Numbered from the stretch's first letter, positions 24,570 to 63,776 are shown. The stretch is DNA of 64,000 nt from an uncultured Collinsella sp. (GCA_902491765.1 CABUIY010000007.1:5204-69203), one strand, 5' to 3'. Notes: a model not told the origin generated them from the sequence alone. Program-made: numbers and translations.

Positions 24570-24825
24570 ACCAGTGATCCTCCTTTATGGATCTGTGCCG
24601 CCCCGTGTCGTTCCGGGCGGCGTCGTACAGATTTGCCCAGCCTGCGTAAACCGCGCAGCCGGACATGGCGTTCTATCTTATCGCACCCACGTCGATGTGC
24701 CGCGGAAAAGTAGCTCATGCCCAAAGACTTGACGGAGACGAAACAATTGATGCGCCGTGGCCGTCGCCAAGGCGCGCCGCGTGCGACAATGTGCCCCAAT
24801 ACAACTGCACTCGGAAAGGCCCGCC

Positions 24826-56507: not shown

Positions 56508-57659
56508 CTAGTAGATCCTTTCGACCTCCTTGGTCAAGGCCCTGAAAAGATCCCCAGCTGAGGGGTCTGCCCCAGGACACAGCGATTGCCAGGCACCCGT
56601 TTCTCCGATGGTGCCCGCACTCGTCATAACAAGATCGTCGCTCCGCCTGCGAATGGAGACACTAACGGAGCGGCCATTATGGAACCCATGGATATCGACT
56701 TTATTTATGCGCCCATCAGCTAGATAACTAATCATGACATTGATGCTGTCACCATACTCCGGCAATTCGAAGCCGTGGGAATCCATCAATAGCTTCACGT
56801 CCTGATGGTAAATGCGGGCCTCGACGACATTCTTGGGCATCTTCCCCGTCTTTGTTGGAGAGCAAAAGCTGATGCTTGGCTCCTCTTCGCTCATGCCTCG
56901 GTCAAACCTAAGCATGCACGGGCATACCGACTCAATGGTTCGCAAGGCGTCCGCCGCGACCTTTTCCTCGGTAAACATCTCCACGTCGATGCCGTTTTCT
57001 TCCATATAGGCACGGTTTTTACGTTGAAGCTCTAGCCGAGCCGCAGCCTCCCCATCTCCACGCTGTTCCCAATTTCCGGAGTCGGCGACATTTCGATCGA
57101 ATGTAGAATCAACGGAACATGGCGCTTGCTGTTGAGTCTGATCACTGTCGCCGAGACGCCTTAGCTCGGAGCGTCTCATCAGTAGTGTCACAATATCAAA
57201 CAGCCAACCAAATCCAAAAAGGCCAAAGGTAAAGAGATATAGAAAGAAGCTACCCCACATCCGTGCATACGCCCTATGAGCGCCCGACCACCCAAGAAGG
57301 AAGCATAGCAAAAGCGCCTTGTTTGCCCTGTCAACCGACGTAATCTCTCGAGTGAGAGATTTCTGTTCAGGCTTCGTCAAAGGTGTAATTTCATGCGATG
57401 AAACAGTAATTGAGGACGTCCTTGACGCCGAGCTCCGAGCGCCTGATTTAGCAACGGCGCGAGCGACATCCCCAACTCCGACGGTCGTTCTGCTGTATAC
57501 GGCATTGTAAGCAGCCTTCTTCGGATTTTTGATCCACCCCATGCCCTTCTTACCATAGCCGGGGATTATCGCCCGCTTTACCGCGCGCTTCGCTCTGCCG
57601 GTCGTTCTTGCCTTGAGTGATGTCTTTAGATTCGGCTTACGCAGCCCGACCTTTACCAT
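56508..57659 (-). CDS. TM2-domain membrane protein with a basic N-terminal motif and an uncharacterised C-terminal domain
   Basis: The TM2-like segment reads LLLCFLLGWSGAHRAYARMWGSFFLYLFTFGLFGFGWLFDIVTLLM. The N-terminus reads KPNLKTSLKARTTGRAKRAVKRAIIPGYGKKGMGWIKNPKKAAYNAVY. The start is at MVKVGL (57657-57659, RBS GGAG). The DNA is visibly more AT-rich than its surroundings. Confidence 0.7.
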   Translation of the reverse strand: MVKVGLRKPNLKTSLKARTTGRAKRAVKRAIIPGYGKKGMGWIKNPKKAAYNAVYSRTTVGVGDVARAVAKSGARSSASRTSSITVSSHEITPLTKPEQKSLTREITSVDRANKALLLCFLLGWSGAHRAYARMWGSFFLYLFTFGLFGFGWLFDIVTLLMRRSELRRLGDSDQTQQQAPCSVDSTFDRNVADSGNWEQRGDGEAAARLELQRKNRAYMEENGIDVEMFTEEKVAADALRTIESVCPCMLRFDRGMSEEEPSISFCSPTKTGKMPKNVVEARIYHQDVKLLMDSHGFELPEYGDSINVMISYLADGRINKVDIHGFHNGRSVSVSIRRRSDDLVMTSAGTIGETGAWQSLCPGADPSAGDLFRALTKEVERIY

Positions 57660-57770
57660 ATTTCTACTCCATCCCCTAGGAACCCCACACCGGGGTGCAC
57701 GAGCACGCCTGGGTCTCCCCGTTTTCAAGCGCCCCGTGTTTGCCTAATGTTCACGCCCTTTCGGACTCTA

Positions 57771-57784
57771 ATCCCCAGCTGCCA
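57771..57784 (+). repeat. Plus-oriented fragment resembling the tRNA-Ser T-stem/acceptor 3' end
   Basis: ATCCCCAGCT-GCCA compares with the tRNA-Ser 3' end ATCCCCAGCTCTCCGCCA. The preceding CGCCCTTTCGGACTCTA resembles the right end of the 57836-57971 element. Confidence 0.5.
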
Positions 57785-57835: not shown

Positions 57836-57971
57836 TGGCGGAGAGCTGGGGATGTCCGGGCATGCTGCGCATGCCCTCCGGCTTCAAAGCCTGGCGGCTT
57901 TTCGCCCACGGGCTACAAACGCTTTCGCGTTTGCTTAACGCCCGTGCCCTCTCGGGTTCGAATCCCCAGCT
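57836..57971 (-). repeat. 136-nt GC-rich multi-hairpin element capped by the last 17 nt of tRNA-Ser (incl. CCA) with its own terminator copy
   Basis: The plus strand starts TGGCGGAGAGCTGGGGA (= tRNA-Ser 3' end). Hairpins follow: GGGCATGC-tgc-GCATGCCC, CACGGGC..GCCCGTG enclosing AAACGC-tttc-GCGTTT, then GGGTTCGAATCCCCAGCT. The ends AGCTGGGGA / TCCCCAGCT are inverted repeats. The downstream 57-nt block (terminator plus 3' end) duplicates 57985-58042. Confidence 0.75.
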
Positions 57972-58025: not shown

Positions 58026-58116
58026 TGGCGGAGAGCTGGGGATTCGAACCCCAGATGCCCTTTTGGGGCATACTCGCTTAGCAGGCGAGCACCTTCGGCC
58101 TCTCGGTCAGCTCTCC
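58026..58116 (-). tRNA. tRNA-Ser (anticodon GCU), class II, CCA encoded
   Basis: The hand-folded sequence is GGAGAGC-TG-ACCGAGAGGCCGAAGGT-GCTCGCCTGCTAAGCGAGT-ATGCCCCAAAAGGGCAT-CTGGGGTTCGAATCCCCAG-CTCTCC-G-CCA. The anticodon loop is CTGCTAA. Confidence 0.92.
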
Positions 58117-59570: not shown

Positions 59571-62012
59571 CTACCCCAGCGAGCGGTTGAGGGAGCCGAG
59601 CTCGTCGTTACCCATGGTACGCCACATTTGGAAGATGCAACCGCGCGCCAGGAAAAAGAAGCCGTTGTCGACCAGTTGCACAGCGGCATCTGCCAGCTGA
59701 TTCGTCACGGCGGACACTGGCGGCAGCTCAAGTCCAGCCTTGCGGATGGTCTCGACCGCCTCCTCGAACGTCGGAGGCTCGCTGACGCCCATCTCGTTCA
59801 TAAGGCCCTGCATTTCTTCCAGCGCGCTGCTGCCCGACTCCTCGCCGCGCGGCACTAGACGGTAACAAGCCAGCGCTAGGTCGAGCTGATCGCAATTCCA
59901 ATAGGCAAACGCCAAGCGATAGAACAGGTAGCCAATTGCAGAACGATCGCTGGCAATACGTAGGCCGTGGCGCGCCACCTCGATAATCTCGTCAAAGCGC
60001 TCCAGACGCGCAAGCACGTTGATGAGCGCAAAGTGCGATTGCATGGACGAGCGCGCCAGATCGTAAAGATGGCGCACCTCGGGCAGTGCTCGTTCAAAGT
60101 CCTCTTGCTCGGCGTAAAAGCTGCAGATCTCGTGCTGGGCAAAGTACAGCGCATCGGGCGCACGAAGGATTCGCACAGAGTCGTCTTCTTCCAATACCGG
60201 TAACACCATGCGCACCAGCTGGTTATCGCAAAACTGCGTTTGAACCGGACCTGTCGCCAAAAGCTCGGCGACAGTGCACTTAGCCTCCAACTCCTCGACA
60301 AGACGGGAAAAGCCTTCAAAAGCACCTGTACGGTCTACTTTTGCCTGCTCGCGCAATTCAACAACACGGGCCACGTATGGGTCATCGTCCTCTTCCATGA
60401 CCTCCAACTCGTCAGCCGTATCGGCAAGCAGCAGATCGCGCAGCGCCGGCGGCAGCGTGCGATGGTCATCACGCGGACGAGCATGAACCTCCGCAGGCTC
60501 AATCGTCTCCGGAGCGGTTGACTCATACGCCTCAAGCACACGCTTGCACGGCATATCGTCCATGTCCATGCTCTCAAGATCCTTGGCGACAGGCACGCAA
60601 TCGGCCAGATAGGCCGCGCGCCCAAAGAAATACGTTGCAACAACGCGCTCGCCCTGCTCACTGTCGGGAGCAGCAATCTGCACATAGCAGCGCGTGATGC
60701 AGGTGCCCGCGGCAAAACACGCTGCCGCAAGCGTGAGTGCCACGCGCGCATCGTGCTCCGCGGCCCAGATCGCGCGCGTGTCCTCGTCCAGCTCGCGCCA
60801 GGCGTCATCCTGAGCGTCGTATTCACGTTGCAGCATGGCATCAACGACAGACTGCCCAAACCGAACGAGCATAATCCCCTCGGCAACGTTTGCCCGATAG
60901 GTATAGTCGAGCCGCGTGACCACGTTGAGCGCCTCAACGATTCGCGCAAAACGGGTGCGCACGTCCCACTCGCCGCCCGGCTGGCACGAAACCGTTCCCG
61001 GCTTGGCCCACGGGTTATCGCTCGAAGCCGTATCGAGCAGTCGGGGAACATCGTTGGTCGTCTTGGCGATATGCCACGCATCAAAGAGCGCGCAGCCCTC
61101 AAGGCTCGGCGAGGATGCCGCAGGGGCCAATCCGGCCCCGATGCGCTCAAGGATGCCGGAGAGGCGGTTGAGACGGCACTCGATGGCAAGCAGCATGTCA
61201 ATCTCGTCCTGGTCCAACAGGCTACGATCAAAATTGAGATAGAAAATCTTTGAGCGATCAATGCGAGCCAGGCTCATCTCGGACTTAGCAGCGATGGTGC
61301 GCAGGCGGGGCAAGTCAATTTCGCTCATAAGGGCGGCGGCATAGCGCTCGATACCGCTCGGATTCTCGGCATGGTCAACGCGGTAAAGCAGCGTCTCGAT
61401 AGCATCGGGGAGCGGTGCCGTGTTAAAGTCCAAAAACACCTCGACCGGCTCGGGCAACTTTACGAGCTTGATCTTGTCGACAACGTTTTGCATACCCTCG
61501 TCGAGTCCGCCGGCGTCCGCCGTGTTCACAATAGCGCTTTCGGAGTTGGCAAATATCACGTAGCGCAAGAACATCGAGGCCATGAACTCACCGTAAGGAA
61601 GGGCGCGGGTCGAATTCCATGTCTCGTGGTCGGACTGCTCGCGCATGGGGCCTTCGGGAGAGCCGGCAGTTTGCGCACACGCGCGCATTGCACCGTTGGC
61701 TTTCCTTACCATAATCTCACCAATACTGGAATCCGACTCGTCAAGGACCAGTTCCATGTCGGGATCGTTGGGCAGCGGAGCCTCGCTGACGGGGCGGTCC
61801 ACCTTGTACACCTCACCCGAAACGCTTACGTAGCCCAAAAGCGACACATGACTTTTGCCAACGAACTCGACGACATAACAAGATTCATGCTGATCCTCGC
61901 CAAAGAGTTTCCAGACCACGCCATATGAGCGTCCCGCAGGCTGCTCGGGCATCGCCGGAAAGCGCTTTTTGGGATCGAGAAACCTGAGCTTGTATGTCGG
62001 ACGCTCTGCCAC
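59571..62012 (-). CDS. 813-aa protein of unknown function with a TPR-like helical-repeat C-terminal third
   Basis: Long uninterrupted ORF with protein-like composition. The C-terminal region (YFAQHEICSFYAEQEDFERALPEVRHLYDLA...GYLFYRLAFAYWNCDQLDLALACYRLV) looks like TPR repeats. I recognise no catalytic motif. The start is a GTG at 62010-62012, so it is uncertain. Confidence 0.7.
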   Translation of the reverse strand: MAERPTYKLRFLDPKKRFPAMPEQPAGRSYGVVWKLFGEDQHESCYVVEFVGKSHVSLLGYVSVSGEVYKVDRPVSEAPLPNDPDMELVLDESDSSIGEIMVRKANGAMRACAQTAGSPEGPMREQSDHETWNSTRALPYGEFMASMFLRYVIFANSESAIVNTADAGGLDEGMQNVVDKIKLVKLPEPVEVFLDFNTAPLPDAIETLLYRVDHAENPSGIERYAAALMSEIDLPRLRTIAAKSEMSLARIDRSKIFYLNFDRSLLDQDEIDMLLAIECRLNRLSGILERIGAGLAPAASSPSLEGCALFDAWHIAKTTNDVPRLLDTASSDNPWAKPGTVSCQPGGEWDVRTRFARIVEALNVVTRLDYTYRANVAEGIMLVRFGQSVVDAMLQREYDAQDDAWRELDEDTRAIWAAEHDARVALTLAAACFAAGTCITRCYVQIAAPDSEQGERVVATYFFGRAAYLADCVPVAKDLESMDMDDMPCKRVLEAYESTAPETIEPAEVHARPRDDHRTLPPALRDLLLADTADELEVMEEDDDPYVARVVELREQAKVDRTGAFEGFSRLVEELEAKCTVAELLATGPVQTQFCDNQLVRMVLPVLEEDDSVRILRAPDALYFAQHEICSFYAEQEDFERALPEVRHLYDLARSSMQSHFALINVLARLERFDEIIEVARHGLRIASDRSAIGYLFYRLAFAYWNCDQLDLALACYRLVPRGEESGSSALEEMQGLMNEMGVSEPPTFEEAVETIRKAGLELPPVSAVTNQLADAAVQLVDNGFFFLARGCIFQMWRTMGNDELGSLNRSLG

Positions 62013-62114
62013 GAAATATCACCCTGATCGGTCGCTTGAAGAAGGAGTGGTCGCGAATAAGTCGCGACATCTACTCGGAATCTTACACGAGTCGATAAGA
62101 AATCGTCCGCTTCA

Positions 62115-62158
62115 CGCCCGCGCCTCGACCGAGGTTCGAATCCATGCAGTGCTTACGT
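62115..62158 (-). repeat. Truncated copy of the 5' part of the Arg-capped element
   Basis: CGCCCGCGCCTCGACCGAGGTTCGAATCCATGCAGTGCTTACGT matches the right end of the 151-nt element and then diverges. Confidence 0.7.
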
Positions 62159-62197
62159 AAAAGAAAAGCCCCCGTTGCCGGGAGCTTTAATCTCAAA

Positions 62198-62348
62198 TGG
62201 TGCGGCGTATAGGATTCCGCGCATCCGCTGCGCGGATCCGCACCGGCTTCGCCCGCCTGCCGGCGTGCTCGCCCGCTCGCTAAAAACGCCCCGCGTTTTC
62301 TTGGCGCTCGCGCCTCGACCGAGGTTCGAATCCATGCAGCGGCGACAT
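62198..62348 (-). repeat. 151-nt GC-rich multi-hairpin element ending in the last 20 nt of tRNA-Arg incl. CCA (copy 1)
   Basis: In minus-strand sense it reads ATGTCGCCGCTGCATGGATTCGAACCTCGGTCGAGG...AAAACGCGGGGCGTTTT...CGCCGGCAGGCGGGCGAAGCCGGTG...CCGCGCAGCGGATGCGCGG-AATCCTATACGCCGCACCA. A hairpin terminator follows at 62159-62197. Confidence 0.85.
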
Positions 62349-62387
62349 AAAAGAAAAGCCCCCGTTGCCGAAGGCTTCAAGTTCAAT

Positions 62388-62464
62388 TGGTGCGGCGTAT
62401 AGGATTCGAACCTATGACGTTCTGATTCGTAGTCAGACCCTCTATCCAGCTGAGGTAACGCCGC
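62388..62464 (-). tRNA. tRNA-Arg (anticodon ACG), CCA encoded, copy 1
   Basis: The hand-folded sequence is GCGGCGT-TA-CCTCAGCTGGATAGAGG-G-TCTGACTACGAATCAGA-ACGTC-ATAGGTTCGAATCCTAT-ACGCCGC-A-CCA. Confidence 0.93.
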
Positions 62465-62476
62465 GACTTGTTGATT

Positions 62477-62505
62477 ATTATGCACATGGACTGAATAAAG
62501 GTCAA
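62477..62505 (-). promoter_or_regulatory. Promoter of tRNA-Arg copy 1
   Basis: On the minus strand, TTGACC (62500-62505), a 17-nt spacer, then CATAAT (62477-62482), 12 nt before the tRNA 5' end. Confidence 0.7.
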
Positions 62506-62622
62506 GCGTTTTTCAAAAAAAGTTATTGAATTTGATTTTTACTCATTTTGACCACTTGATGCGATCTTCGACGCATCGCGATATAAGAAAAGCCTCCGTT
62601 ACCGGAGGCTTTAAAATTCAAT

Positions 62623-62773
62623 TGGTGCGGCGTATAGGATTCCGCGCATCCGCTGCGCGGATCCGCACCGGCTTCGCCCGCCTGCCGGCGTGCTCGCCCG
62701 CTCGCTAAAAACGCCCCGCGTTTTCTTGGCGCTCGCGCCTCGACCGAGGTTCGAATCCATGCAGCGGCGACAT
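62623..62773 (-). repeat. 151-nt tRNA-Arg-capped element (copy 2)
   Basis: Identical to copy 1 by my reading. Its downstream terminator (62584-62622) carries compensatory stem changes (GCCTCCGTTACCGGAGGC). Confidence 0.85.
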
Positions 62774-62812
62774 AAAAGAAAAGCCCCCGTTGCCGAAGGC
62801 TTCAAGTTCAAT

Positions 62813-62889
62813 TGGTGCGGCGTATAGGATTCGAACCTATGACGTTCTGATTCGTAGTCAGACCCTCTATCCAGCTGAGGTAACGCCGC
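62813..62889 (-). tRNA. tRNA-Arg (anticodon ACG), copy 2
   Basis: Identical to copy 1. Confidence 0.93.
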
Positions 62890-62901
62890 AACGCACGGAT
62901 T

Positions 62902-62930
62902 ATTATGCACGTGACCCCTCGATGGGTCAA
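62902..62930 (-). promoter_or_regulatory. Promoter of tRNA-Arg copy 2
   Basis: On the minus strand, TTGACC (62925-62930), a 17-nt spacer, then CATAAT (62902-62907). Confidence 0.7.
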
Positions 62931-62970
62931 GCGACAATTTGGAAAAATTTTACGAAGTGATGATTAAGAT

Positions 62971-63013
62971 GCTCGCGCCTCGACCGAGGTTCGAATCCGT
63001 GCGGTGCCGGCGT
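62971..63013 (-). repeat. Truncated, diverged copy of the 5' part of the Arg-capped element
   Basis: GCTCGCGCCTCGACCGAGGTTCGAATCCGTGCGGTGCCGGCGT. Confidence 0.7.
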
Positions 63014-63052
63014 AAAAGAAAAGCCCCCGTTGCCGGAAGCTTCAAGTTCAAT

Positions 63053-63203
63053 TGGTGCGGCGTATAGGATTCCGCGCATCCGCTGCGCGGATCCGCACCG
63101 GCTTCGCCCGCCTGCCGGCGTGCTCGCCCGCTCGCTAAAAACGCCCCGCGTTTTCTTGGCGCTCGCGCCTCGACCGAGGTTCGAATCCATGCAGCGGCGA
63201 CAT
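63053..63203 (-). repeat. 151-nt tRNA-Arg-capped element (copy 3)
   Basis: Identical to copies 1 and 2 by my reading. Confidence 0.85.
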
Positions 63204-63242
63204 AAAAGAAAAGCCCCCGTTGCCGAAGGCTTCAAGTTCAAT

Positions 63243-63319
63243 TGGTGCGGCGTATAGGATTCGAACCTATGACGTTCTGATTCGTAGTCAGACCCTCTAT
63301 CCAGCTGAGGTAACGCCGC
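63243..63319 (-). tRNA. tRNA-Arg (anticodon ACG), copy 3
   Basis: Identical to copies 1 and 2. Confidence 0.93.
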
Positions 63320-63329
63320 AGCGCAAGAC

Positions 63330-63360
63330 ATATAAAACCACTTTAGTTCGTTAGAGTCAA
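63330..63360 (-). promoter_or_regulatory. Candidate promoter of tRNA-Arg copy 3
   Basis: On the minus strand, TTGACT (63355-63360), a 17-19 nt spacer, then TTTTAT or TTATAT. Confidence 0.5.
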
Positions 63361-63398
63361 GCAAAATCTCAAACTTTTTTCGCGCGGGCCGCAATTTG

Positions 63399-63776
63399 TC
63401 ACGCTGCACCACAAGCATCGGCGCTTCTCGTGCGATCGATTGGCTTTTCGATCACATCGAACCCGACGCCAAGCTCCCCCAGAAGCGACCGCACCCGCTG
63501 GGCACAATCATAATCGGCAAACGAGATGCTCAGCATGCGCGCGACCTGGTTGGAAGTCCCAACTCCATAGAAGTGCTCCAGCGCCACAAGCCCCACGTGC
63601 GTCACAAAGGTCTCGACCACATGCGGCGACTCCTCAAAACACCATTGTGTCAACGGACCCTCACTCGTCTGTCGAACCACCAGGCCACCCATGCCAGACG
63701 GCTCACACGTTACAAGCAGGTACTCCCCACCCTCGTCGCTCTCAAACAAAACCACCCGATCATCAAACAGCTCCAT
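63399..63776 (-). CDS. Hypothetical 125-aa protein
   Basis: ORF with protein-like composition (MELFDDRVVLFESDEGGEYLLVTCEPSG...). I recognise no motif. Confidence 0.5.
   Translation of the reverse strand: MELFDDRVVLFESDEGGEYLLVTCEPSGMGGLVVRQTSEGPLTQWCFEESPHVVETFVTHVGLVALEHFYGVGTSNQVARMLSISFADYDCAQRVRSLLGELGVGFDVIEKPIDRTRSADACGAA

Follow-up and report, generated by a model that had tools for sequence, protein, structure and literature searches.

The DNA analyzed here is a stretch of 64,000 nt from an uncultured Collinsella sp. (GCA_902491765.1 CABUIY010000007.1:5204-69203), referred to below as the window. Between positions 62115 and 63360 its minus strand carries an array of three tRNA-Arg(ACG) genes, each of which is followed by a terminator, a structured element of about 137 nt, and a second terminator. 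An initial annotation of this region had described three such modules with a period of 425-430 nt. ARAGORN, the Rfam tRNA model, and a repeat finder all agree with this description, the last by returning a direct-repeat family of three copies that lie 425 and 430 nt apart. By direct comparison, we could also confirm that three 267-nt blocks (62198-62464, 62623-62889, and 63053-63319) are base-identical. Outside these blocks identity continues for at most 6 nt on one side and at most 1 nt on the other. Since the flanks differ, the array cannot be explained as a recent simple tandem duplication with identical flanks. Tandem Repeats Finder gave no output on the array because the period is near the limit of this program and the flanks have diverged.

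The two ends of the element derive from the neighboring tRNA, as the initial annotation had pointed out. The last 20 nt of tRNA-Arg (GAATCCTATACGCCGCACCA) occur six times in the array: three times within the tRNA genes and once at the end of each element. All three elements start with a reverse-complement T-loop and carry the 5' motif GGATTCGAACCTCGGTCGAGG. The same motif occurs twice more, at 62998 and 62143, where truncated 5' ends of the element had been noted behind two of the terminators. The length of 151 nt first assigned to the element includes a spacer and needs correction, as the tRNA-derived parts bound only about 137 nt (for example, 62198-62334). Scans of the minus strand of the array revealed six terminator-like hairpins and two promoter-like sites (TTGACC-17-CATAAT), all at the positions expected of them, and the promoter scan of the array showed no separate promoter for the element. 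A fourth copy, located in the same window behind tRNA-Ser(GCT), had been missed. The features of both loci are listed in Table 1.

Table 1. Features of the tRNA-Arg(ACG) array and the tRNA-Ser(GCT) locus, in window coordinates
Feature	Position	Strand	Basis
Promoter-like region, module A (TTGACT, ~17-19 nt, T/A-rich -10)	63330-63360	-	Read by eye; below consensus-scan threshold, tentative
tRNA-Arg(ACG), module A, CCA encoded	63243-63319	-	ARAGORN; Rfam tRNA model, 66 bits
Trailer and intrinsic terminator 1A (stem 63210-63233, GCAA loop, T-run)	63204-63242	-	Terminator scan and sequence
Element A	63053-63189	-	Family model R1, 142 bits, full length; motif positions; geometry
Element A, inverted T-arm copy	63178-63189	-	GGATTCGAACCT matches at 63177-63188
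Element A, core (P1, Pa, P2, P3, P4) and direct tRNA 3'-end copy	63053-63072 (direct copy)	-	
Terminator 2A, diverged copy of terminator 1	63020-63043	-	Terminator scan
Fractional next unit, first 28 nt of element (GGATTCGAACCTCGGTCGAGGCGCGAGC)	62971-62998	-	Motif search and sequence
Promoter-like site, module B (TTGACC-17-CATAAT)	62902-62930	-	Promoter scan, 10/12 matches
tRNA-Arg(ACG), module B	62813-62889	-	ARAGORN; Rfam tRNA model
Terminator 1B	62780-62803	-	Terminator scan
Element B, identical to A and C	62623-62759	-	R1, 142 bits; identity check
Terminator 2B, diverged stem (AAAGCCTCCGGTAACGGAGGCTTT), without a fractional unit after it	62589-62612	-	Terminator scan and sequence
Promoter-like site, module C (TTGACC-17-CATAAT)	62477-62505	-	Promoter scan
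tRNA-Arg(ACG), module C	62388-62464	-	ARAGORN; Rfam tRNA model
Terminator 1C	62355-62378	-	Terminator scan
Element C	62198-62334	-	R1, 142 bits
Terminator 2C	62165-62188	-	Terminator scan
Fractional unit after module C, element 5' ~39 nt, then decay	62105-62143	-	Motif search; weak R1 match at 62040-62144, 12.9 bits
tRNA-Ser(GCT), partner of the fourth copy	58026-58116	-	ARAGORN
Ser-linked element, more divergent	57836-57966	-	Sequence; R1, 116 bits; geometry
Degenerate second Ser-linked unit, starts GGGGATTAGAGTCC, borders strain-variable gene	57621-57775	-	R1, 13.1 bits (weak); strain comparison

The element is not confined to tRNA-Arg, which the initial annotation had also missed. In 120 loci from species-representative Collinsella genomes and in syntenic human-gut metagenome contigs (loci are labeled L001 and so forth), its partners are the tRNA genes Arg-ACG, Leu-CAG, Leu-TAA, Ser-GCT, and Phe-GAA, together with a sixth class that has ends resembling transfer-messenger RNA (tmRNA). 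In all of these classes the ends are tailored to the partner gene. On its 5' side, read from position 57970 (4 nt upstream of the element), the Ser-linked copy carries AGCTGGGGATTCGAACCC, which reproduces tRNA-Ser positions 51-68 in reverse complement; it ends with ATCCCCAGCTCTCCGCCA, corresponding to positions 59-76. Syntenic contigs reveal a tRNA-Leu(CAG) gene 4.8 kb past the window edge, followed by a terminator and then by a related element that has the Leu T-loop in reverse complement (GGGACTTGAACC) at its 5' end and finishes with the Leu 3' end (GTCCTTTCGCCCGCACCA). The sixth class, with the inverted copy GGAGAATCGAACTC and a 3' side starting with TTCTCCGCGC, is apparently linked to the tmRNA gene. 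This putative assignment was made because the ends resemble the tmRNA 3' end at a prophage junction (L161), and because the element follows a tmRNA-like ...GCTCCACCA end.

The association with tRNA ends is also evident from a pattern search. In a set of 115 core-pattern matches in Collinsella DNA, the core lies 127-137 nt past a tRNA end in all but two cases (174 and 474 nt), and the tRNA's own 3' end recurs 11-13 nt after the core. The remaining Collinsella matches fall at contig edges or in a tmRNA-type context. Every Collinsella copy examined is linked to a tRNA or tmRNA end or sits at a contig edge. Matches to the core pattern in other organisms were rejected as chance matches in coding DNA. 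A Pseudomonas sequence (L066) that scores 22.5 bits with R1 was likewise not accepted as a member, as no tRNA gene lies near it and the search pattern had already selected for such a sequence. A search for more distant relatives by way of the 813-aa neighbor protein returned a match list saturated by Collinsella proteins of at least 89% identity. In the literature on Collinsella tRNA repeats or tRNA-linked repeats we found nothing specific.

Comparison of these loci defines a repeating unit of 186-197 nt that starts within the tRNA T-loop, at a junction that follows the sequence TTCRA. From there the unit consists of tRNA positions ~59-76, a trailer with an intrinsic terminator, a spacer of ~14 nt, the inverted copy, and a core of ~110 nt, after which the next unit or stub resumes from 59-76. 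An array can therefore be written as tRNA(1-58) plus n units plus a fraction of a unit, and the truncated 5' copies in the window are fractional last units. The inverted copy begins 55-62 nt past the tRNA end and measures 12-18 nt, covering positions 51-62 (Arg, Leu-CAG), 51-63 (Leu-TAA, Phe), or 51-68 (Ser). The direct copy runs for 18-20 nt to the CCA, starting at 59 (Ser and both Leu), 57 (Arg), or 56-57 (Phe). The 5' arm is complementary to the sense strand of positions 51-68, whereas for positions 59-76 it is the antisense strand to which the 3' arm is complementary. A comparison of left and right trailers showed that the second trailer and terminator, behind the direct copy, are homologous to the first. 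Since trailer, terminator, and spacer are also homologous between the Arg, Leu-CAG, and Phe loci, these parts appear to belong to the unit.

An alignment of 72 distinct copies (A1) contains five helices, P1, Pa, P2, P3, and P4. In this alignment 92% of the helix cells form standard pairs, compared with 30-42% when the partners are slid by one to three columns. Both sides have changed at 14 pairs, and the observed covariation was reached in none of 500 column shuffles, so that the covariation among homologs for which the initial annotation had proposed to look is indeed present. Pair 28-67, for example, is seen as C-G, G-C, and A-U. Helix P2 occurs as AAAACGC/GCGTTTT, CGGACGC/GCGTCCG, and CAAACGC/GCGTTTG, and P4 as ATCCGC-GCA-GCGGAT, ATTTGC-GCA-GCAAAT, and GGCATGC-GCA-GCATGCC. 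Helix Pa is either Watson-Crick paired throughout (CGCGGGC/GCCCGCG) or contains tandem G·A pairs (CGCGAGC/GCGAGCG). RNAalifold adds a closing stem that pairs columns 3-5 with 129-131.

The alignment also reveals which strand folds. Among the stem cells there are 91 G·T pairs, which are common and even fixed, versus 18 A·C pairs, which are singletons or stem from misaligned Ser rows. The loops are of GNRA or GNA type when read on the tRNA strand only. From this tolerance of G·T, the rarity of A·C, and the loop types we conclude that the folding strand is the tRNA-sense strand. Of the three hairpins originally proposed, AAAACGC/GCGTTTT is supported by covariation. The other two, CCGCGCA/TGCGCGG and CGCCGGC/GCCGGTG, can pair but covary little, and they may represent alternative conformations. 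In place of the 3' hairpin proposed earlier, the comparison backs GCGGATCCGC-GCA-GCGGATGCGC. Some Arg copies carry a P2 of the Leu-TAA type, pointing to mosaic exchange between loci.

Across Collinsella species the nucleotide diversity amounts to 0.000-0.012 in the 18-nt direct copy, 0.005-0.058 in the core, and 0.11-0.28 in the following trailer; the copies were picked with a loose filter, so the contrast and not the absolute values is informative. In these sequence comparisons both tRNA-derived ends prove to be maintained. Copy number varies, with 0, 1, 2, or a fractional number of units per tRNA. Two full tandem units are present in L057 and L034, truncated ones are found in L021, and many genomes include tRNA-Arg modules that lack a unit altogether. 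Presence/absence polymorphism, a point raised initially for tRNA-Arg loci, was observed at the tRNA-Leu site, which is filled in L001 and empty in L004 with a difference of exactly 189 nt. Units are gained and lost as wholes.

The identity of the three 267-nt blocks is a local phenomenon. In most other Collinsella genomes the Arg modules are identical only across the 77-nt tRNA and up to 5 nt beyond. Among the close relatives of this strain, a small number again show identity over 267 nt (L001, parts of L005 and L006, and one pair in L037). This distribution is best read as the result of recent, strain-local homogenization within the array. The limits of the identical block fall exactly at tRNA position 1 and at the element's CCA, the two ends expected of processed RNAs. 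This agreement may be due to chance, or it may be a hint as to how the modules are homogenized.

The initial annotation had assigned the element to no named family. With respect to database matches this still stands, as Rfam scans, run at E<=10 on the array and at the gathering threshold on the whole window, return only tRNA and an unrelated aspS motif apart from sub-threshold noise. What had been overlooked is the anatomy of the RtT repeats of E. coli (RF00391). These repeats, reportedly described in 1978, are said to be among the oldest known in this organism, and the rtT RNA is processed from the tyrT operon transcript. In the tyrT-tyrV locus of E. coli K-12, tRNA-Tyr is followed by a trailer of ~60 nt, by GGGGAAGGAT (the reverse complement of tRNA positions 59-68), and by a GC-rich core that ends in a GCGCAGC hairpin and leads into AATCCTTCCCCCACCACCA, equivalent to tRNA positions 58-76. 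One unit lies between tyrT and tyrV and three more follow tyrV, with a unit length of 178 nt, the inverted copy 60 nt past the tRNA, and a direct copy of 19 nt. All four copies score 133-138 bits with RF00391 (gathering threshold 45 bits), the Rfam consensus of which has a closing stem formed by the two tRNA copies, inverted and direct. In the E. coli record, the first repeat is overlaid by an annotated small RNA, rttR. RtT is present in 4,738 of 5,426 complete E. coli genomes, with 1-10 copies and a median of 3. The mode of action of RtT is still stated as unknown (bioRxiv 10.1101/2024.07.17.603846).

By analogy with this system, the most likely reading, which we consider about as probable as a coin toss (roughly 0.5), is that the Collinsella array belongs to a class of RtT-like, tRNA-linked structured repeats and is made as RNA together with the tRNA. 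The repeats, widespread across Collinsella, form a new family of a known, poorly understood kind, without demonstrable homology to RtT. The initial annotation had suggested a miniature element mobilized by an integrase, nested attachment (att) scars, or a tRNA-linked structured RNA. The last of these fits best, because the hairpins covary and because the stems tolerate G·T and not A·C; the integrase and att readings retain some support and are weakened by evidence discussed below. On the RtT-like reading, RNA polymerase that starts at the strong tRNA promoter and reads past terminator 1 would transcribe the element. Pairing between the inverted and direct copies would then close the RNA. Its 3' end would be trimmed at the element's own ...NCCA by the tRNA 3'-maturation enzymes, because this end and its trailer duplicate those of the tRNA. 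Arrays would grow and shrink through unequal recombination or slippage between the direct repeats formed by tRNA end and terminator, and gene conversion may swap core sequences between loci.

Several observations weigh against this reading. A good intrinsic terminator stands between every Collinsella tRNA and its element, and expression of the element would therefore require read-through. A single element is barely more stable than shuffled sequence (z = -1.6), and the case for structure must consequently rest on comparison. The alignment has an effective sequence number of only 1.5 (about six independent classes), and its covariation is mostly between classes, so that part of the apparent compensation could be due to block exchange between loci. 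Direct similarity to RtT is also lacking: RF00391 gives no match at E<=10 over 61800-63600 and none at its gathering threshold over the whole window. Conversely, R1 scores the four RtT copies at 8-15 bits, partly by way of the tRNA-like end, which compares with 12-13 bits for random sites in the window, although the matches have the correct location and strand. When the core is searched as a sequence-only profile (nhmmer), the score is 0.2 bits for the best RtT unit, a value equaled or exceeded by 38 of 500 shuffles. Motifs that seemed by eye to be shared between RtT and Collinsella were not upheld in this test of a hidden Markov model against shuffled sequences. An RtT-like origin also does not explain how one core became fitted with the ends of each tRNA. 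The main unexplained fact is that the inverted copy mirrors tRNA positions 51-58, which have no partner in the direct copy and for which end-to-end pairing gives no reason. For example, the Leu-CAG inverted copy reads TTG, not TCG, in agreement with A57 of tRNA-Leu(CAG), and that of the tmRNA class reads ACTC versus ACC(C) in the other classes.

Alternatively, the units could be a non-autonomous integrative element or stacked attL/attR scars. In this scenario a recombinase encoded elsewhere inserts and excises an attP-sized module, equipped with a tRNA 3' end of its own, at the T-loop of the cognate tRNA. The block of identity between unit and tRNA extends from the T-loop (57-59) to the CCA in all classes, and identity that starts in the T-loop is a hallmark of att sites used by T-loop-class integrases. 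The exact 189-nt presence/absence at tRNA-Leu is in line with this idea, as are the homologous trailers and terminators at the Arg, Leu-CAG, and Phe loci, which suggest that these parts travel with the unit, and the use of tRNA and tmRNA 3' ends as attachment sites by Collinsella prophages with large serine integrases. However, in the loci read in detail there is no integrase or recombinase gene within or beside the arrays, and the serine integrase near L080 and L133-L141 belongs to a prophage at a tmRNA-like 3' end and not to the element. The element is also absent from IMG/VR, from the INPHARED phages, and from the PLSDB plasmids: an IMG/VR scan with the core pattern produced two matches, both due to chance in coding regions, and BLAST of the whole 190-nt unit against phages and plasmids produced none. 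Selection on single-strand hairpins, apparent from the preference of G·T over A·C, is not expected of duplex arm-type sites, and 190 bp would be very short for a double-stranded circle. Integration furthermore leaves unexplained why one conserved core occurs with six cognate ends, and the arrays are tandem with fractional copies. We regard this explanation as unlikely.

Gut prophages of ~32 kb (L133-L212 from IMG/VR; L080:1946-3523) form a large family. One of their ends carries a large serine integrase, the junctions fall within tRNA or tmRNA 3' ends, and the attP sites contain TGGTGGAG...TTCGAACCC, a reverse-complement mimic of a tRNA 3' end. Locus L080 was considered as a phage parent, an element fused to a serine-integrase gene, and was rejected, since it contains a prophage that occupies a tmRNA-like 3' end, and a resident tmRNA-type element follows shortly behind. 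The Arg-type 3' end at L080 is a rearrangement or misassembly of a low-coverage contig from a metagenome-assembled genome.

A related and rather unlikely possibility is that each unit represents, or derives from, a mobile element or a guide-like RNA that targets the T-loop of tRNA-like genes and has ends templated by the target (the 5' arm from 51-68 and the 3' arm from 59-76 of the other strand). The two arms join at tRNA position 58/59, where the copying of a tRNA primer by a retroviral reverse transcriptase halts at m1A58. If the ends were indeed templated in this way, a single conserved core could be redirected by a novel mechanism to many tRNA genes and to the tmRNA gene, and E. coli RtT would be a frozen relative.

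It is improbable, in our estimation, that the units are mobile elements that fold as single-stranded DNA, similar to IS200/IS605-type PATE, REP/RAYT-like, or CTX- and integron-like att sequences, with hairpins recognized in the form of DNA and the stem of inverted and direct copies mimicking a duplex target. The loops C-GCA-G, C-GGA-G, and GCGAAGC are GNA triloops, which form exceptionally stable DNA mini-hairpins, and selection for folding acts on one strand only. On the model of CTX phage, the succession of target, ~55-60 nt, inverted copy, body, and direct copy would fit integration of a folded single strand, and the TTCRA before the junction resembles a short target motif. No Y1/HUH transposase, RAYT, or Xer-type partner was identified, however, though no genome-wide search for Y1 transposases was made. 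The copies are not dispersed, being linked throughout to tRNA or tmRNA ends, P1 and the terminator carry GNRA tetraloops, and the E. coli analogue has the annotated small RNA rttR. Moreover, IS200/IS605 elements do not duplicate their target, whereas the tRNA end is duplicated here.

We assign a very low probability to the idea that the units are neutral by-products, arising from ordinary tandem duplication behind highly transcribed tRNA genes. Copy number that varies freely and includes zero, the recent and strain-specific nature of the perfect identity between the three modules, and spurious reading frames called across the units would all be compatible with neutrality. On the other hand, the same core stands behind six different genes with tailored ends, stem changes are compensatory, and the direct copy and stems are conserved across many Collinsella species while the trailers diverge. 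Least credible of all is an orphan or relic guide RNA (TnpB ωRNA, homing CRISPR RNA, or bridge-RNA type), in which tRNA positions 59-76, beside TTCRA, would serve as an 18-nt guide at the 3' end and the 5' arm would pair with the other DNA strand of this site. A scaffold of ~115 nt does precede an 18-nt flank-derived 3' segment, the intact tRNA gene does have the conserved T-loop pentamer TTCGA/TTCAA directly before the sequence that matches, and the two arms of one RNA could address both strands around 58/59. However, the tRNA gene is intact and not interrupted, the loci read in detail have no adjoining nuclease or recombinase gene, Rfam yields no match to ωRNA, HEARO, or related families, and tandem amplification and internal terminators are foreign to known guide RNAs. 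Two further origins of the element were rejected. The inverted T-loop could have been the 3' end of a decayed tRNA on the opposite strand, but only the Leu-TAA copy forms a clean T-arm there. The core could have been the reverse complement of the 5' part of a tRNA, left by a tandem inversion duplication, but it bears no such resemblance and is the same for different tRNAs.

Some features of the neighborhood deserve mention. Downstream of the Ser-linked copy (region 56508-57728, minus strand) lies a TM2-domain gene that is missing from several otherwise syntenic strains (L002 and L004-L007 were compared). The strain-variable DNA at this gene starts exactly at the second inverted T-loop copy (GGGGATTCGAACCC), and the fractional Ser unit therefore marks the boundary of this DNA. 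In L006 (1500-1775), an insert of ~260 bp with 28-bp terminal inverted repeats (GGTCAAAAAGTGGCAAATATGAGTACTG / CAGTACTCATATTTGGCCTTTTTTGACC) follows the tRNA-Leu(CAG) terminator in place of the element and has the look of a miniature inverted-repeat transposable element. In L014 and L052, the last unit of tRNA-Leu(TAA) is followed by a long hairpin (GCGGTGGAATAG...CTATTCCACCGC) and by direct repeats of TCCCACATTTTCCGATGGAAAAACGTGGTTGTC, both of which sit just before an ATPase-like gene. The aspS RNA motif (RF02930) in the window, at 24581-24664 on the minus strand, scores 77.6 bits (gathering score 42.5) and is unrelated to the repeats.

Open reading frames (ORFs) of 108-163 aa run through the tRNA genes and elements (62153-62485, 62611-62937, and 62927-63418 on the minus strand of the window; L001:6359-6850). 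Those across the Arg modules are almost certainly spurious, and one of them has been called as a gene in public metagenome annotations. Many public contigs with the 813-aa gene (homologues of the protein encoded at 59571-62012 of the window) are only ~2.75 kb long, which is about the length of the gene. Short-read assemblies appear to break at the flanking repeats, that is, at the tRNA-Arg array and the tRNA-Ser element. In practical terms, the units appear to interrupt short-read assemblies in this common gut genus, and they yield spurious ORF calls.

With the Collinsella family, the RtT design is seen in another phylum and with at least six tRNA-like partners, which turns a one-off curiosity into a class. 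The Collinsella family supplies covariation data for the fold and shows that both tRNA-derived ends are kept. It also poses a sharp question, namely how one conserved core gains the ends of each neighboring tRNA.

Among other known repeats, REP/BIME and ERIC sequences share with the Collinsella units the GC-rich stacked hairpins, the intergenic position after terminators, and the repetition within a genome; unlike these units they are dispersed, not tied to tRNA genes, and devoid of target-derived ends. Spacers from tRNA operons can act as small RNAs, as exemplified by the 3' external transcribed spacer (3'ETS) 3'ETS-leuZ of E. coli. Like these, the Collinsella RNA would be non-coding, made from a tRNA promoter, and freed by tRNA processing enzymes, whereas 3'ETS spacers are unrepeated, carry no copy of the tRNA end, and engage in short antisense pairing with other small RNAs. 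T-loop att sites of integrative elements, as well as degraded or cis-mobilizable islets such as CIMEs, resemble the Collinsella loci in that a direct repeat of the tRNA 3' part, beginning in the T-loop, brackets an insert with exact-ended presence/absence. The Collinsella units differ by having neither integrase nor cargo, only ~170 nt between the repeats, covarying hairpins, tandem fractional arrays, and one core with six cognate ends, and by their absence from phage and plasmid collections.

The resemblance to RtT is the closest in anatomy. Both kinds of repeat are found right behind tRNA genes, share their strand, and also occupy the space between tandem tRNA copies, and both form tandem units of similar length (178 nt in E. 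coli and 186-197 nt in Collinsella) with copy numbers that vary between strains. In both, the unit ends with the last 18-20 nt of the tRNA including the CCA, taken from position 58 in E. coli and from 57-59 in Collinsella, and an inverted tRNA copy 55-62 nt past the tRNA end is complementary to this 3' segment, with which it forms a closing stem. Both contain a GC-rich hairpin core with a GCGCAGC hairpin just before the tRNA-derived end, and both have given rise to spurious small ORFs, namely tpr in E. coli and the 163-aa call in Collinsella. The two differ in that the Collinsella unit holds an intrinsic terminator, whereas the E. coli RtT transcript ends at a Rho-dependent site. The K-12 locus is tied to tRNA-Tyr, whereas the Collinsella family has at least six partners with cognate ends, and the hosts belong to different phyla, Pseudomonadota for RtT and Actinomycetota for Collinsella. 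A geometry that is shared without shared sequence suggests a common mechanism or constraint, or could be the trace of a very old relationship.

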